A stretch of 11,336 nucleotides of DNA from an uncultured archaeon (GCA_964631415.1 CAZVZC010000047.1:1-11336); one strand, 5' to 3'; positions 4,330-11,336 are shown, counted from the stretch's first letter. Numbers and translations are program-made. The notes: generated by a model not told the origin, from the letters alone.

Positions 4330-4740
4330 ATGTCACAGAAAGGCGTTCCGACCTATCGCGGACATGAGCTTGAGGCCCTTGCCAAGATGAGCATGGATGA
4401 GCTGATAGAGCTTCTCCCATCACGTAGGAGAAGGACCCTGAAGCGAGGGCTTCCTCCAAGACAGAAGAAACTCCTCATCAAGCTCAGGAATGCAAGGAAG
4501 GCTCAGAAGAAGGGTAAGGAAGTCATTGTGAAGACACACTGTCGTGACATGGTCATACTCCCGGAGATGGTCGATCTTACTGTGGCCGTGCACAATGGCA
4601 AGGATTTCCTTAGGGTCAAGATAATCCCACAGATGATTGGACACGTCCTTGGAGAGTTTGCCCCCTCAACCAAGAAGGTTTCCCATGGCAACCCAGGCAT
4701 TGGTGCAACCAAGTCATCATCATTCGTACCGCTGAAGTAG
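4330..4740 (+). CDS. rps19: 30S ribosomal protein uS19 (archaeal S19P / eukaryotic S15 type)
   Basis: [43 protein letters not shown] and the C-terminal [18 protein letters not shown] tail typical of archaeal/eukaryotic uS19. Confidence 0.98.
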
Positions 4741-6852: not shown

Positions 6853-7254
6853 GTGGATTGTCTGCATTCGGCTTACAACTCCCCTATCATATCCTGCGGC
6901 AGATCCAGCTGTATAATCCTCTACAGGGGAGAGGACTGCTTCTTCTGTGATGCTGCCGCCGAAATGCTGAACAGCATCATGTCTCAGTATGGCGTGTCAA
7001 ACGATGTGATTCGAGAGATCGACATCGACTCGTCAGAAGATACTGAGTCCGAACCTGCGATTGTGGCCCTCCCTACCATAAGGATATGCGATGCCGTGCT
7101 ATCGGGCCTTCCCGAAGAGGACGTCATAAGCGACGCCATCATCCGAGTGCTGATGAAGGACTGTTTCTCGGAGCATATCGTAGGTCATAATGAACTGTCG
7201 GAGCCTCGAGCAATAGAGAGTCTGTCTGGTCCTCTCGGCCAGCGAACAGAATAG
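6853..7254 (+). CDS. Thioredoxin/glutaredoxin-fold protein (CFFC)
   Basis: IILYRGEDCFFCDAAAEML (strand, CxxC, helix), IREIDID, cis-Pro loop VALPTIRI, LSGLP. GTG start uncertain. Confidence 0.75.
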   Translation: MDCLHSAYNSPIISCGRSSCIILYRGEDCFFCDAAAEMLNSIMSQYGVSNDVIREIDIDSSEDTESEPAIVALPTIRICDAVLSGLPEEDVISDAIIRVLMKDCFSEHIVGHNELSEPRAIESLSGPLGQRTE

Positions 7255-8015: not shown

Positions 8016-8423
8016 ATGAGAATGCAGACTAAGATTGCGGCACTCGGTGCACTCGTCTTGGTCGCTCTATCGACTGTGACCATCATGGCGCTGTTCGACG
8101 ATGCTGAGGGGCCGCTCATCTATGAGGTGGATATCCTGCCTGTTTCACCAAAGGGCGGCGACATGATTACCGTCAGTGCCTACTGCATTGATACCTCTGG
8201 AGTGTATTCTGCAAAGATGTCATGGTCAATCAACGAGGCGGGGTGGGTCGAGCAGGACATGGTATTCTATGCGTGCCTGTGCCTAGCGGGCGGAAGGTGG
8301 ATTGCCAGCTTTGGCCCCGTTAGTGCAAGTGACACAGTGGACTTGTATGTGACAGCTTATGACAACACACCCGGTCACAACTCTGCAAACACCCAGACCT
8401 TTCAACTCCAGATAGCGACGTGA
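8016..8423 (+). CDS. Exported or membrane-anchored single Ig-like domain protein with a CLC loop
   Basis: N-terminal hydrophobic signal/anchor KIAALGALVLVALSTVTIMALF; beta-sandwich pattern D..GP.I..V...P..P...D.ITVSA...D.SGV......W......W.A......V..YVTAYD...N; Cys in AYCID and YACLCLAGGRW. Confidence 0.7.
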   Translation: MRMQTKIAALGALVLVALSTVTIMALFDDAEGPLIYEVDILPVSPKGGDMITVSAYCIDTSGVYSAKMSWSINEAGWVEQDMVFYACLCLAGGRWIASFGPVSASDTVDLYVTAYDNTPGHNSANTQTFQLQIAT

Positions 8424-8437
8424 AGCTGGTGACAAAC

Positions 8438-8632
8438 ATGAGAATCGAAGCCATCATCAACCTAGTGATACTTGTGGTCGGAGTTGTTGTTGCTATTGCA
8501 CCTTGGACCTTTGCGCCAGTCTGTGCAAGTCAGATGAGATGCTGGAATACGCGTGATGTGGAAACAGTCTTGGGTGCTTCCATTGCGCTTCTTGCTCTTG
8601 TCAGCACATACAGACTTCTCGCTCACGGATGA
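8438..8632 (+). CDS. Small two-TM protein, single-repeat DUF4418-like
   Basis: TM, APWTFAPVCASQMRCWNTRDVETVLG, TM; PVC..M.C..T...E..LG is the DUF4418 pattern as I recall it. ATG 8438 has SD GGTGA (8428-8432); an alternative GTG at 8420 overlaps the upstream stop. Confidence 0.7.
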   Translation: MRIEAIINLVILVVGVVVAIAPWTFAPVCASQMRCWNTRDVETVLGASIALLALVSTYRLLAHG

Positions 8633-8660
8633 AGAGAAACGGTCTGTCGGAGGGTTGCTG

Positions 8661-9131
8661 GTGAACCTAGAACAACGCAGGATGCTGGAGGCGGCCTTCG
8701 TCACTGTGGGATGCCTCGGCATCTACGGCTTCACTAGCACACTTCAGGTCGTTCACTACTGTGATTGGACCGGACTGCAGATTCGCGACCGCATTGGCCA
8801 TGAGGTCACTTTCTTCCTCGTGAATGGCACCCAGAGGTACTACTGCTGCGTGAGCATATCGCTGTTGGCGTTTGATCATCTCATTGGGGTTGGCCAAACA
8901 GATAGCATCGTCAACATACAAGTCAGATGTCCAATGTGCGGGATGCTGATGGACTGGGATGACCAGATGATTGTGTGGATTGCTCAGTCTGACTATCTAT
9001 GTCCTACGACAGGCACGCCCACAATTGTCTGTGTGTGTCAAGACCTCTCGGATACGGAACTGTGTGAGAGCCACTTCTTACAGCTACATGGTGGCAACAT
9101 CACAGCAAACCCCTACGTCTGGCCCCCATAG
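8661..9131 (+). CDS. Cys-rich NosL-like / tandem TRASH-like exported metal-binding protein
   Basis: N-terminal RR plus hydrophobic segment with VGCLG; HYCDWTGLQI...NGTQRYYCC...LLAF...IVNIQVRCPMCGML...VWI..SDYLCPTTG...IVCVC...CESHFLQLHGG. Layout and the terminal F...HGG match NosL. GTG 8661 is preceded by GGAGGG (8649-8654). Confidence 0.65.
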   Translation: MNLEQRRMLEAAFVTVGCLGIYGFTSTLQVVHYCDWTGLQIRDRIGHEVTFFLVNGTQRYYCCVSISLLAFDHLIGVGQTDSIVNIQVRCPMCGMLMDWDDQMIVWIAQSDYLCPTTGTPTIVCVCQDLSDTELCESHFLQLHGGNITANPYVWPP

Positions 9132-9142
9132 AGGCGATCTCC

Positions 9143-9550
9143 TTGCGAAAGCGAATGATACTCATTGCCCTGCTATTATCAGTTTCATTCAACGTACTAG
9201 CTGCATTCGCTGTTAGTGCATTCCCAAGAACTTCGCAGGCATGGCTCTTCCCAGATCTGGGGCCAGGGATCTTGCAGGACTCCTACTACAGCAGAGCGCC
9301 CGCACTTGAGAGCCTGTTTGGTGCAATCGGTGATGTGCCCGGGGGGTACTCACTCTACGCAGGGAGTCCGCTTCAAGGGGGTTTCAATGACAATCTCAGT
9401 ACTTGGATGGTGGGGTCAATCCCTTGGAGGTTGTCTATGCCTGCTTCAGAGGGAAGTGCAATCGTTGCGGCCATTGCAGTGGCCGCCCTACCTCTCCTAA
9501 TAGTCTTCATCTTTGGGAGGAGATCATACGGGTCTACGAAGACACGTTAA
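9143..9550 (+). CDS. Hypothetical membrane protein: signal peptide/TM, Gly/Pro/aromatic-rich loop, C-terminal TM with basic tail
   Basis: TTG start with SD-like GAGGCGA (9131-9137); MRKRMILIALLLSVSFNVLAAFAVSA ... AIVAAIAVAALPLLIVFIFGRR; fills the operon gap exactly. Confidence 0.65.
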   Translation: MRKRMILIALLLSVSFNVLAAFAVSAFPRTSQAWLFPDLGPGILQDSYYSRAPALESLFGAIGDVPGGYSLYAGSPLQGGFNDNLSTWMVGSIPWRLSMPASEGSAIVAAIAVAALPLLIVFIFGRRSYGSTKTR

Positions 9551-10742
9551 CCTTGCCAGCTACTCTCTGGGAAACGTATTCAAGTATCGAACGAGGACTG
9601 CCGCGATACTGTTGGCCCTCACGTTCTCCACAGCTTTGCTTTGCTCTGTCGAGTTTATCAGAGAAGGGGTTGTGATAGACATTGAAGCCTCACTTGGGGA
9701 GGGCCCGGACCTTGTTGTTCAGAAACTGGTCGGAGGACGCCAAGTACTGGTACCATTGGAGTGGATCAACAATGTGTCTGAAACGACAGGGGTCAGACTG
9801 GTCACTCCTCGTGTATGGGGATACACTGATGCAGGGGACGGCAGACTGCTCACTGTCATGGGTGTGAACGCAACGGAGTATGCCACCATATTCGCGGCAG
9901 TCGGTACTGACATCTTGGCCGGCGGCAGATTCATCATGGAGAACGACACAAGGAAAATGGTAGTGGGACAGGGTATCATTGACATGATGGCTGCATCTGG
10001 CGCAGCGGTGACAATCAATGTAGGGTCTGTGCTATCGCTCATCACATGCAACGGCAGTCTGATTGAGTTCGTGGTAGTCGGTGTCTTCAGTGCAGACTCG
10101 AAGATACAAAGCTACGACCTGATTATGACTGACATCGGCAGTGCTCGCATGGTCCTAGGCGTTGACAATTCGTCATGCACGGACGTCGCTGTGTGGATCA
10201 GCTACGGAAGTGACTTGAACAGCGTGGCGTTCCAGCTCGACACCTCGTTGTCACAGGCACGTGTGCTGACACGTGATGCGATGAAGAACAACATGCTGAG
10301 GACCTATGGAGGCCGTGCGGGTGTGGCTGCACTCCTATGGGCCTGCGTGTTGTTAACAGTTGTGTTGCTTGTCTGCACTGCCTCATCTGCAGGCTCGGAA
10401 GAGGCCAAGAGAGAAGTGGGTCTCTTGAAAGCTCTCGGCTTTGACACTGTTGACATTCTGGAAATCAGGATGGTAGAAAGCCTGACTCTGGGGGCTCTTG
10501 GTGCCAACTTCGGCATTTCGCTGGCGATAGTCTTTGACTTCGTCTTGGGAGCACCACTTCTGGCCGGATATCTGCTAGGATGGAATCTTGTCCTTCTGAA
10601 TGGGGGCATCCCCTTAGCTGTTTCTTCAGCCACCATATTCACGGTATTTGCAGCAGCCATTGTCCCCATCATGGTCGCCACGGTCGTGCCTTCATGGCGA
10701 AATGCGATCACCGAGCCGGACACGGTTCTGAGAGGTGTCTAG
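9513..10742 (+). CDS. MacB/FtsX/LolC-type (type VII) ABC transporter permease; true start may be ACG at 9528
   Basis: TM1, then a large extracytoplasmic domain (GPDLVVQKLVGGRQ, GVRLVTPRVWGY, MVVGQG, FVVVGVF), TM2, KREVGLLKALGF, ESLTLGALG, TM3-4 and VPSWRNAITEP. Confidence 0.93.
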   Translation: MGGDHTGLRRHVNLASYSLGNVFKYRTRTAAILLALTFSTALLCSVEFIREGVVIDIEASLGEGPDLVVQKLVGGRQVLVPLEWINNVSETTGVRLVTPRVWGYTDAGDGRLLTVMGVNATEYATIFAAVGTDILAGGRFIMENDTRKMVVGQGIIDMMAASGAAVTINVGSVLSLITCNGSLIEFVVVGVFSADSKIQSYDLIMTDIGSARMVLGVDNSSCTDVAVWISYGSDLNSVAFQLDTSLSQARVLTRDAMKNNMLRTYGGRAGVAALLWACVLLTVVLLVCTASSAGSEEAKREVGLLKALGFDTVDILEIRMVESLTLGALGANFGISLAIVFDFVLGAPLLAGYLLGWNLVLLNGGIPLAVSSATIFTVFAAAIVPIMVATVVPSWRNAITEPDTVLRGV

Positions 10743-10743
10743 G

Positions 10744-11336
10744 ATGACATTTGCAGTCAGGACAGAGAACTTGTGGAAGACCTATGGCTCTGGTGGACCA
10801 CGCCAAGTTGATGCTGTACGGGATGTCACAATTGAGATTGAAAGAGCAAGAATCACAGCCATCGGGGGCCCTAGTGGTTCTGGAAAGACGACACTCTTGA
10901 GTCTAGTCGGTCTGCTCACAAGGCCAACCAAGGGAAAGGTCCTGTATGGTGACCAAGACTTTTCGACCCTCTCAGAAGTGTTCAGAACAAGAGCACGTCG
11001 CCAACGGATTGGGTTCATCTTCCAAGCTCAGTATCTCATCCCACAGCTCACCTCTGTGGAGAACGTTGCTCTCCCGATGCTCTGCTTGGATGTCCCTCGT
11101 TCTGAGGCAGAGAAACTGGCAGCTGAGAGGTTGTCAGGGTTGGGCATGAGGCATAGGTTGGACTTCAGAGTGGCGGAATTGAGTGGCGGCGAACAACAAC
11201 GCGTTTCGATAGCGAGGTCACTCATGAACTCGCCAGAGATACTGATTGCGGACGAGCCAAGTGCATCAATCGACGAGAAGTCTGCTGAGGAGCTGCATTC
11301 TGTCCTGAGAGAGATGGTCGAGAGGGACAAACTGAC
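10744..11336 (+). CDS. ABC transporter ATP-binding protein, LolD/MacB/MJ0796 type (runs off the window)
   Basis: Not in the ORF track; from ATG 10744 (SD GAGGTG 10732-10737): MTFAVRTENLWKTYG, Walker A GPSGSGKTT, Q-loop IGFIFQ, ENVALP, signature LSGGEQQRVSIARSL, Walker B ILIADEP. Confidence 0.96.
   Translation, partial: MTFAVRTENLWKTYGSGGPRQVDAVRDVTIEIERARITAIGGPSGSGKTTLLSLVGLLTRPTKGKVLYGDQDFSTLSEVFRTRARRQRIGFIFQAQYLIPQLTSVENVALPMLCLDVPRSEAEKLAAERLSGLGMRHRLDFRVAELSGGEQQRVSIARSLMNSPEILIADEPSASIDEKSAEELHSVLREMVERDKL

Follow-up and report, generated by a model that had tools for sequence, protein, structure and literature searches.

RESULTS

Organization of the locus

The window, that is, the whole stretch of 11,336 nucleotides that was analysed, comes from a Thorarchaeota (Asgard) host and carries a cassette of six tightly packed genes on the + strand at 8016–11336. 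These open reading frames (ORFs) and a seventh gene beyond them are as follows.

g1, 8016..8423, + strand: 135 aa, N-terminally anchored CxC protein (ORF)
g2, 8438..8632, + strand: 64 aa, half-size DUF4418 protein; alternative GTG start at 8420 (ORF and Pfam)
g3, 8661..9131, + strand: 156 aa, 10-Cys protein with a modelled NosL fold, tethered by a transmembrane (TM) helix (ORF and AF2 model)
g4, 9143..9550, + strand: 135 aa, TM helices at the N- and C-terminus (ORF)
g5, 9513 or 9528..10742, + strand: FtsX/LolC-type permease of a type VII ABC system (ORF and Pfam)
g6, 10735 or 10744..11336, + strand: LolD/MacB/FtsE-type ABC ATPase, 3′ end missing (ORF and Pfam)
g7, just past the window on the same contig, convergent: 8-helix Cys-rich membrane protein

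An earlier note on this DNA had described six co-oriented, close-packed genes, and the spacing bears this out, with gaps of 14, 28 and 11 nt along g1–g4 followed by two overlaps or near-abutments; the 3′ end of g4 overlaps the start of g5. In the contig, a run of N directly follows 11336, so that the C-terminus of g6 is missing, and then come g7 and an NfeD-like gene; no nos cluster was found downstream of the window. The unit of six genes proposed in that note has to be extended to seven: no other partner of the ABC pair is conserved as widely as the convergent g7. Because it is convergent, g7 lies outside the cassette transcript in Thorarchaeota. For g3, the start is a GTG located 8 nt past a GGAGG sequence, and a longer ORF of 192 aa from 8553 would overlap g2. 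Start candidates of g5 are TTG 9513 and ACG 9528, and orthologues show ATG at the latter position.

The order of g1–g6 was identical in all 17 related Thorarchaeota loci fetched, at 35–97% identity. Accessory genes and transporter are thus strictly conserved together, whereas a lack of such co-conservation would have refuted the earlier note. Six genes in one order at 17/17 loci represent far more clustering than expected by chance. Roughly one in three genomes of the order carries the cluster, and g2 is adjacent to g3 in 27 other genomes from 13 of 17 genera. No published description of this cassette was found in the literature.

A type VII ABC pair and a small anchored protein

The claim of a permease with a MacB-type ATPase was upheld by matches of g5 to Pfam FtsX (PF02687; E 1.6e-8, residues 277–396) and of g6 to ABC_tran (E 1.8e-31). 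The g5 product spans the membrane with four TM helices and exposes a large domain outside (residues ~50 to 265 between hydrophobic segments), as FtsX-type permeases do with the large extracytoplasmic domain that separates TM1 from TM2. Its profile matched LolC best among PDB chains (E 8.7e-15, across 148–407), followed by YtrF, LolF, LolE and MacB. The best models for g6 were LolD (E 5e-50), the MacB nucleotide-binding domain (E 9e-43) and FtsE (E 1e-42), and its translation shows Walker A, signature and Walker B motifs, as expected of the cognate nucleotide-binding protein. Neither protein scores at the level of LolCDE proper: g5 reached 45.5 bits against TIGR02212 LolCE (E 4.8e-12), where the cut-off is 362, and g6 reached 170 bits against the LolD equivalog, where the cut-off is 308. 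Together these data strongly support assignment of g5 and g6 to a LolC/MacB-like type VII ABC pair.

The outside part of g4 carries a conserved motif in the alignment (LGPA..QDSY..RAP.LE.PFG.IGD.PGGY), and the protein also has a GRRSYG..KT tail. Neither g4, searched against Pfam and NCBIfam, nor the set of small proteins in the same position in bacteria, searched against Pfam, matched any family. Similarity of g4 to the equivalent Bathyarchaeia gene was weak (tblastn E 0.002), and hhalign gave a probability of 9% between the thorarchaeal and bacterial proteins.

g3 has a NosL fold with a diverged knuckle

No match of g3 to any Pfam or NCBIfam family was found, and Pfam NosL (PF05573) matched neither g3 nor any other protein of the genome at E ≤ 1. 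The AF2 model (pLDDT 92) nevertheless superimposes on NosL 7og7 with a VIA Z-score of 11.6 and an rmsd of 3.1 Å over 114/134 residues (model 30–155 on chain 55–178). In Foldseek, 7og7 was matched at E 3.3e-4, and NosL chains of NosDFYL were also among the best PDB matches; the next-best folds were MerB (Z 6.6) and then eL24. The model thus strongly supports a two-subdomain NosL/MerB-like fold, that of the NosL copper chaperone.

Of the 10 cysteines, 18 orthologues retain five without exception (C34, C90, C93, C126 and C135), along with M95, M97, M103 and H138; an NG(T/S) sequon is likewise invariant. In NosL, a C-x-M knuckle and a Met hold Cu(I), which is passed to an ABC-anchored partner, and the ligands Cys62 and Met64 of the N-terminal CxxCxM, plus Met145, are strictly conserved (PMC8457098). 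In the collinear fit to 7og7, C34-D-W-T37-G-L39 of g3 lies at Cys59..Met64, and T37 and L39 replace Cys62 and Met64. The knuckle of subdomain 1 is therefore degenerate (C34-x2-T) and lacks the bridging Cys and Met, whereas subdomain 2 has a full C90-x2-C93-G-M95. Consistently, hhalign against bacterial NosL aligned only this CxxCGM knuckle, and placed it on the bacterial N-terminal knuckle. With T37 and L39 at the positions of NosL copper ligands, the metal site proposed for subdomain 2 is a putative one. The 10 cysteines and NosL-like character of the earlier description thus stand; g3 falls outside Pfam NosL, however, and has no canonical copper ligands in subdomain 1. Residues 3–27 are modelled as a TM helix in which the only Cys, C18, is unconserved, and no lipoprotein anchor was recognized. 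Just 5 representatives of the g3 family were found among 1.84 billion proteins.

g1 and g2 are specific to Thorarchaeota

Alignment of 17 g1 sequences showed invariant C57 (YCID), C87-L-C89 (ACLCxAGGRW) and GGRW. Searches with g1 gave no Pfam or NCBIfam family and no PDB sequence match; its fold is presumed to be a beta-sandwich or Ig-like. In the Atlas it falls into a separate cluster of 55 Thorarchaeota members, and its look-alikes, a Bacteroidota lipoprotein and DUF4625, are weak.

The product of g2, described before as half of a DUF4418-like protein, indeed passed the gathering score of Pfam DUF4418 (PF14387; E 1.1e-8, 35.8 bits, cut-off 27), but it covers profile positions 2–51 of 117 only. 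It shares with DUF4418 a Cys/Met hairpin, here two helices joined by an invariant loop P-V-C29-x3-M33-R-C35 (C29, M33 and C35 invariant), and differs in lacking the second hairpin of the full-length domain; all 18 orthologues are half-size (61–65 aa). In a genome scan g2 was the sole DUF4418 match (34 bits), and no full-length copy was detected. It lies invariably directly upstream of g3. No profile similarity of g2 to g7 was found, and tblastn found no g2 relatives in 80 bacterial g7 loci; g1 and g2 are Thorarchaeota-specific additions relative to the bacterial operon described below. Taken with g3, these alignments show core Cys, Met and His positions that do not vary, whereas unconserved cysteines would have counted against the earlier interpretation.

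g7 is the constant partner of the ABC pair

The g7 protein consists of 8 helices arranged as two four-helix bundles, and its motifs GAMC, CC and HHCPxC persist without change from Thorarchaeota through to Proteobacteria, the last being a glutaredoxin-type CPYC in Thorarchaeota. The family has no Pfam model, and PDB searches returned generic helical-bundle matches only, with no solved relative and neither DsbB nor VKOR among the matches listed. A long, fully supported tree branch separates archaeal from bacterial g7. In Thorarchaeota, g7 and the cassette occur together in 26 genomes; two genomes have the cassette without g7 and five the reverse, all at contig ends and two with partial cassettes, so that g7 accompanies the cassette wherever contigs permit.

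The first six relatives found outside Thorarchaeota (two in Bathyarchaeia, the others in four bacterial phyla) all lie directly after a same-strand ABC ATPase, which FtsX precedes in 5/6. A wider scan confirmed 576 loci, placing g7 in at least 576 species genomes. Among the best 80 of these loci, an ABC gene adjoins g7 in 79 and FtsX is present in 72; a small anchored protein is encoded in 68 and a true NosL in 62. The NosL genes neighbouring g7 in bacteria are recognised by Pfam NosL (E 4e-33, 3e-34). Moreover, a CusA/CzcA-type RND gene occurs in 20 loci (725 bits, cut-off 701), CusB/CzcB-like adaptors in 9 and ResA/TlpA-like thiol-disulfide oxidoreductases in 14–18, and one bacterial g7 locus has an HMA P-type ATPase. 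At the window locus, likewise, a g7-family gene with GAMC, CC and HHCPxC lies beside the FtsX–ABC pair. These distributions strongly support an obligate genomic partnership of g7 with this ABC subfamily in both archaea and bacteria.

When a complex of g5 and g4 was predicted with g7 as the partner, the score was 0.62, and the best of three controls scored 0.00; in benchmarking, the score mark was reached by 58/80 solved complexes and 2/110 mismatched pairs. Runs agreed in at least 91% of contacts, with a partner pLDDT of at least 77. In the model, g7 is predicted to pack against the TM helices of the permease, and no similar solved complex was found. The predicted interface includes FtsX TM1 and TM2, which line the dimer interface in MacB and LolCDE structures; because a single g5 copy was modelled, g7 may sit in the place of the second g5 protomer.

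DISCUSSION

Relations to known systems

Like NosDFYL (PDB 7OSF, 7ZNQ; NosL 7OG7), the cassette encodes a membrane-tethered NosL-fold protein together with an ABC ATPase and permease, and both likely follow the same logic, in which ATP gates the transfer of Cu(I) on the extracytoplasmic side. However, NosFY is of the ABC-2 type and our pair is of the type VII FtsX/LolC-like type, NosL is lipid-anchored and g3 is anchored by a TM helix, and g3 fails Pfam NosL and has its CxxCGM in subdomain 2. NosDFYL also has no counterparts of g7, g4, g2 and g1. Conversely, the cassette has no NosD at the locus, and Pfam NosD matches in the genome lie elsewhere and are generic beta-helix repeats. No nosZ model match was found in the genome (85% complete), and no link of NosL to nosZ or nosDFY was found, so that the two checks proposed in the earlier note, for nosZ in the genome and for a nos cluster downstream, both came out in its favour.

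Like the type VII mechanotransmitters MacB, LolCDE, FtsEX and YtrEF, the cassette combines a permease of the FtsX type, whose outside domain is large, with a LolD-like ATPase as a separate protein. It differs in scoring under every equivalog cut-off, in having no membrane-fusion protein, LolA/B or EnvC-type partner, and in its conserved partner, the 8-helix Cys/His/Met membrane protein g7.

A further close relative is an unnamed bacterial operon with the order NosL(-NosL), small anchored protein, FtsX, ABC and g7, for example in Pelotalea chapellei DSM 13688 (L175) and Geobacter sp. OR-1 (L192). It has the same ABC subfamily, a g7 family with identical invariant motifs, and upstream NosL-type and small anchored proteins. 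All its genes are co-directional, whereas thorarchaeal g7 is convergent; its NosL passes Pfam, whereas g3 is NosL-like by fold only; and g1 and g2 are absent. The architecture is thus not solely archaeal, since its core is widespread in bacteria too. The NosL/FtsX-ABC/g7 core, of which no published description was found, is shared by Thorarchaeota and hundreds of bacterial species.

A probable copper relay and competing explanations

Because bacterial counterparts of the core adjoin copper-efflux genes, the machine probably handles copper outside the cell. The metal role proposed in the earlier note thereby gains independent support from bacterial relatives in which Pfam NosL stands beside CusA/CusB, TlpA-like and HMA P-type ATPase genes. 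We give a probability of about 50% to a relay that is powered by ATP, works outside the cytoplasm and handles copper or a different thiophilic metal, with removal likelier than enzyme loading.

An envelope thiol-disulfide system, in which g7 would be a DsbB/VKOR-like oxidoreductase using CPxC and CC to set the redox state of exported g1–g3 with the ABC pair in support or regulation, is unlikely but credible. Invariant HHCPxC and CC in g7 loops predicted to face outward are compatible with it, as are the three adjacent Cys-rich exported products g1–g3 and the thioredoxin-like neighbours in bacteria. TlpA-type proteins reduce the cysteines of copper sites, so their presence does not discriminate between redox and metal readings. 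However, Cys in g7 is accompanied by invariant Met and His (GAMC, HHC), a combination characteristic of Cu(I) sites, and NosL, CusA and CusB accompany g7 in 62, 20 and 9 of the 80 loci; the lack of a DsbB/VKOR chain among the PDB matches listed weighs slightly in the same direction.

It is distinctly unlikely that the same machine serves another soft ligand instead of copper, such as Hg(II), Ag(I), Zn/Cd or sulfide/persulfide. MerB, too, has a fold related to that of g3 and is matched weakly by the Bathyarchaeia equivalents (E 5e-4), pumps of the CusA/CzcA family transport Ag, Zn, Cd and Co out of the cell as well, and four-Cys TRASH-like sites usually bind Zn. Yet the closest fold is NosL, which is also the family present in the bacterial operons, and CxxCGM with further Met residues is the Cu(I) motif of NosL (PMC8457098).

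Lol-like sorting, in which the ABC pair would extract or position anchored g1–g4 in the archaeal envelope and the cysteines would be structural, seems very improbable. The top named models of g5 and g6 are LolC/E and LolD, the closest solved relative is LolC, and every accessory protein is membrane-anchored; but equivalog cut-offs are far off (45 against 362 bits, 170 against 308), archaea have no outer membrane, and the partners conserved across domains are NosL and g7 rather than lipoprotein carriers. A MacB/BceAB-type module for peptide or bacteriocin export or for immunity, with small Cys-rich proteins as cargo, is hardly credible: g6 also matches bacteriocin-export ABC models and several products are small and Cys-rich, but these are TM-anchored and 35–97% conserved over 13 genera, precursor-peptide and modification genes are absent, and the bacterial NosL and Cus context speaks against it.

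Proposed mechanism

According to the relay model, g1–g6 and g7 would form one membrane system for a thiophilic metal, most likely Cu(I), at the outer face of the membrane. The three g7 motifs fall in alternate loops, which should face outward by the positive-inside rule, and together they may build a composite thiolate/thioether/imidazole site. Cu(I) would be carried by g3 on its CxxCGM knuckle, and ATP-driven mechanotransmission by g5/g6, perhaps via g4, could force the metal to pass between g7 and g3 or to be released. The CxC plus C of g1 and the PVC-x3-M-x-C hairpin of g2 may be extra stations.

No copper enzyme able to accept the metal was detected in these Thorarchaeota. Plastocyanin and cupredoxin_1 were not found in the genome (85% complete), multicopper oxidase was found in 0/87 genomes of the order, and COX2 occurs in 2/87, neither carrying the cassette. 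This missing acceptor counts against the relay, as do the convergent g7, the failure of Pfam NosL to detect g3, the weak similarity of g4 across lineages and the chance that g7 took the second protomer's place in the model. Since the bacterial versions adjoin CusA/CusB efflux genes and an acceptor enzyme is missing here, we favour removal or detoxification of surface Cu(I) over enzyme loading as the direction.

More broadly, and at somewhat less than even odds, NosL, the small anchored protein, the type VII ABC pair and g7 may constitute an unrecognised cross-domain class of ATP-driven metallochaperone machine, present in at least 576 species, whose Lol/MacB-type mechanotransmitter would act on a metal site in the membrane rather than on lipoproteins or drugs. 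Thorarchaeota would then have a diverged NosL with its knuckle moved to subdomain 2, two lineage-specific thiolate stations in g1 and g2, and no detectable copper enzyme to serve.

Results

Gene layout and a seventh component

The source genome is a MAG of 2.16 Mb (85% complete), and the window is the opening 11,336 bases of its contig C47. From position 8016 it carries six co-oriented genes, g1 to g6, together called the cassette.

Genes of the cassette
g1, 8016-8423, + strand: ORF, anchored CxC protein
g2, 8438-8632, + strand: ORF, Pfam DUF4418
g3, 8661-9131, + strand: ORF, GTG start 8 nt past GGAGG
g4, 9143-9550, + strand: ORF, two-anchor protein
g5, 9513 or 9528 to 10742, + strand: ORF, FtsX domain
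g6, from 10735 or 10744, 3' end cut at 11336, + strand: ORF, LolD/MacB/FtsE-type ATPase

Spacers of 14, 28 and 11 nt separate g1 to g4 and are followed by two overlaps or near-abutments, so that the tight packing claimed in the earlier note is borne out, as is, for g3, its Shine–Dalgarno site. Translation of g5 begins at one of two codons. In 13 of the 16 orthologues listed, the start is ATG and the proteins open ...MG(L/V)(R/Q)(K/R)H.NLA; the window genome and its closest relative (locus L026) have ACG (Thr) at this codon, window position 9528, behind GGAGGAGATC, and the start is either this ACG or the upstream TTG at 9513.

Right after 11336 the scaffold is interrupted by about 100 N (about 2840-2940 of the extracted locus L001). 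The 3' end of g6 is lost in this gap, together with the C-terminal part of a convergent gene, g7, which is why this seventh component was hidden from the window. Past the gap, contig C47 carries g7, encoding a Cys-rich membrane protein, and an NfeD-like gene. A nos cluster at this place, which was to count against the earlier interpretation, was sought on contig C47 and these two genes were found instead; the idea of a six-component unit, however, has to be given up.

Two other genes in the window were observed. A small protein, thioredoxin/glutaredoxin-like and with the motif CFFC, is encoded at 6853-7254 and is kept upstream of the cassette, with an Hjc-like endonuclease, in many Thorarchaeota loci; having neither signal peptide nor anchor, it was set aside as a cassette member, and its position is probably merely local synteny. 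A stand-alone uS19 gene (4330-4740) is flanked by TPR and flavodoxin genes and belongs to no ribosomal protein cluster.

Conservation across Thorarchaeota

Genes g2 and g3 were found in 28 of the 87 genomes of the order (the window genome included), representing 13 of 17 genera, and were adjacent every time. As the earlier note required, the accessory genes are co-conserved with the transporter, the order g1 to g6 being identical in all 17 Thorarchaeota loci fetched, and core Cys and Met residues are conserved: C57, C87 and C89 of g1 and C29, M33 and C35 of g2 are invariant in the alignments, as are C126 and C135 of g3. The g7 gene is convergent to g6 in 16 of these 17 loci, and a contig end cuts the remaining one. 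Cassette and g7 occur together in 26 genomes of the order, the cassette without g7 in 2 and g7 without the cassette in 5; all 7 exceptions are located at contig ends, with partial cassettes visible in two. At one locus (L042; G020:C21, 3282-4259, 6466-7692 and 8740-9144), g1, g5 and g7 each contain in-frame stops (one TAG and one TAA in g7), and this cassette may be decaying, or the stops may be assembly errors.

Family assignment and predicted structures

No Pfam or NCBIfam family matches g1, g3, g4 or g7. The half-size DUF4418 assignment of g2 holds, with 35.8 bits against a cut-off of 27 over positions 2-51 only of the 117-position profile; the function of DUF4418 was not described in the literature searched. 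The idea that g2 is a fragment of the g7 family was rejected, as hhalign gave no similarity. In the same profile libraries g5 has an FtsX domain and resembles LolC/E weakly; g6 is an ABC ATPase of the LolD/MacB/FtsE type, and both score well under all Lol equivalog cut-offs. Judged from sequence, the pair is a type VII ABC system, since the closest solved relatives of g5 are LolC (E 8.7e-15), then YtrF, LolF, LolE and MacB.

The AF2 model of g3, built from an 18-sequence alignment, has a pLDDT of 92, and its top PDB matches are NosL of Shewanella denitrificans (7og7) and the NosL chains of NosDFYL. Foldseek gave E 3.3e-4 for 7og7, and VIA gave Z 11.6 and an rmsd of 3.1 A over 114 residues (model 30-155 onto chain 55-178); the next matches were MerB (Z 6.6) and eL24 (TRASH-like), the latter over residues 30-74 only. 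The Pfam NosL search detected neither g3 nor any other protein of the window's 85%-complete genome, nor did it match P0005, a distant representative of the g3 family, which is tiny (5 clusters in a profile search of 1.84 billion protein representatives). The proposed NosL/TRASH-like identity therefore survives in the predicted fold and fails in the Pfam search: it is the structural model, and not the sequence, that marks g3 as a NosL. The canonical NosL site is degenerate, because in the collinear fit on 7og7 C34-D-W-T37-G-L39 of g3 occupies Cys59..Met64. A putative metal site would instead lie in subdomain 2, where a complete knuckle (C90-x2-C93-G-M95), which hhalign pairs with its N-terminal counterpart in bacterial NosL, is accompanied by invariant M97, M103, C126, C135 and H138. 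The anchor of g3 is a TM helix and not a lipobox, and its invariant NG(T/S) sequon is consistent with a location outside.

The g7 protein (about 326 aa) is modelled as two four-helix bundles, with GAMC and CC loops of low confidence. Its GAMC, CC and HHCPxC motifs should all lie on the outer face, because basic loops alternate with Cys loops in the alignment (positive-inside rule). The model has no PDB match at Foldseek E <= 0.001; wide VIA matches of residues 1-162 and 179-326 (Z about 12) were dismissed as generic four-helix bundles at noise level. When one copy of g5 was given together with g4, and with g7 as the partner, the predicted complex scored 0.62, whereas the best of three controls reached 0.00; 58 of 80 solved complexes, but just 2 of 110 mismatched pairs, attain this mark. 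At least 91% of contacts agree between the runs, with partner pLDDT of at least 77, and g7 helices 3-20 and 47-82 are placed against TM1, TM2 and TM3/4 of the FtsX protein. The pass does not come from a solved structure known to the predictor, because a similar complex was sought for g7 among solved PDB structures and none was found. The exact interface is uncertain, because a single g5 copy was given and, in solved structures of MacB-type transporters, the two protomers meet along TM1 and TM2.

Relatives in Bathyarchaeia and bacteria

When one genome per species was scanned for the g7 pattern, relatives turned up in Bathyarchaeia and in several bacterial phyla. The first six all lie directly behind a same-strand ABC ATPase, which FtsX precedes in five, and a broader profile gave at least 576 confirmed g7-family loci.

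Features at the best 80 of at least 576 g7-family loci (missing features are mostly contig-end cases)
ABC ATPase: 79/80
FtsX permease: 72/80
Small anchored protein: 68/80
NosL, often two copies: 62/80

The bacterial order (L133-L212) is stereotyped: NosL(-NosL), small anchored protein, FtsX, ABC and GAMC/CC/HHCPFC protein, an apparently undescribed operon. Bacterial NosL neighbours clear Pfam NosL (E 4e-33 and 3e-34); the small anchored protein, with the motif LTDLCLFTEARYTRH...PFQD, has no Pfam match, and its homology to Thorarchaeal g4 is unproven. GAMC, CC and HHCPxC are invariant from Thorarchaeota through all bacterial relatives compared. At least 274 g7-family clusters exist in a 5.8-billion-protein set; they are hypothetical wherever named, except for one with a generic ABC label, and all lack a Pfam domain.

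ORF clustering of flanking genes at the same best 80 of at least 576 loci gave a CusA/CzcA-type RND pump at 20 (725 bits against a cut-off of 701), CusB/CzcB-like adaptors at 9 and ResA/TlpA-like oxidoreductases at 14-18. A histidine kinase recurs at 13 bacterial loci and an HMA P-type ATPase occurs at one; an ORF cluster resembling multicopper oxidases (3 loci) was rejected, having no NCBIfam match. The core operon is found in Geobacterales, Nitrospirota, Thermodesulfobacteriota, Methylococcales and others, with Cus-type efflux genes adjoining a quarter of sampled loci, and cultured carriers include Pelotalea chapellei DSM 13688 and Geobacter sp. OR-1.

In a quick, unrooted tree of g7, Thorarchaeota and Bathyarchaeia lie on the same side, parted from bacteria by a long, fully supported branch, which argues against recent transfer. 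One Bathyarchaeia locus (L103, 5966-6667) encodes, between a CxxCGM TRASH/MerB-like protein and a g4-like gene, a 233-aa anchored protein that consists mostly of repeats rich in Gly, Tyr and Met (GMGMGMM, YGYPYNY). Repeats with many Met residues are a typical feature of proteins that bind copper.

Discussion

In our best reading, g1 to g7 make up a putative relay outside the cytoplasm that is powered by ATP and passes on a thiophilic metal, Cu(I) being likeliest. The type VII ABC pair would act on the composite Cys/Met/His site of g7 and also on the NosL-type carrier, and in Thorarchaeota g1 and g2 may serve as additional thiolate stations. The CPxC and CC motifs, taken with the thioredoxin neighbours, are equally compatible with a thiol-redox role.

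For the metal relay, removal or detoxification is favoured over enzyme loading, because in bacteria the operons show linkage to Cus genes and the window's genome encodes an HMA P-type ATPase. Moreover, that genome (85% complete) has no plastocyanin, cupredoxin_1 or NosZ, and among the 87 genomes of the order multicopper oxidase is found in none and COX2 in two only, both without the cassette.

Literature searches (NosL+FtsX, NosL+MacB/Lol, NosL-like families) gave no description of a NosL-FtsX/MacB-type module. In this literature the architecture is as unfamiliar as was first thought, but its core is also widespread in bacteria. We propose, as the best reading, an ABC-coupled NosL copper relay that employs another class of ABC transporter and has gained a new membrane partner. 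If true, type VII ABC transporters would gain a new job, the movement of soft metals between extracytoplasmic protein sites, and NosL-type chaperones would acquire a partner system independent of N2O reduction. Since the operon is common in environmentally important bacteria (Geobacterales, Nitrospirota, Thermodesulfobacteriota and methanotrophs) and adjoins Cus-type genes in a quarter of sampled loci, it may be a missing piece of their periplasmic copper or silver handling, a question made directly testable by the cultured carriers. For Asgard archaea, it would be a rare, well-defined envelope system, one that they have in common with Bathyarchaeia and that is separated by a long branch from the bacterial forms.
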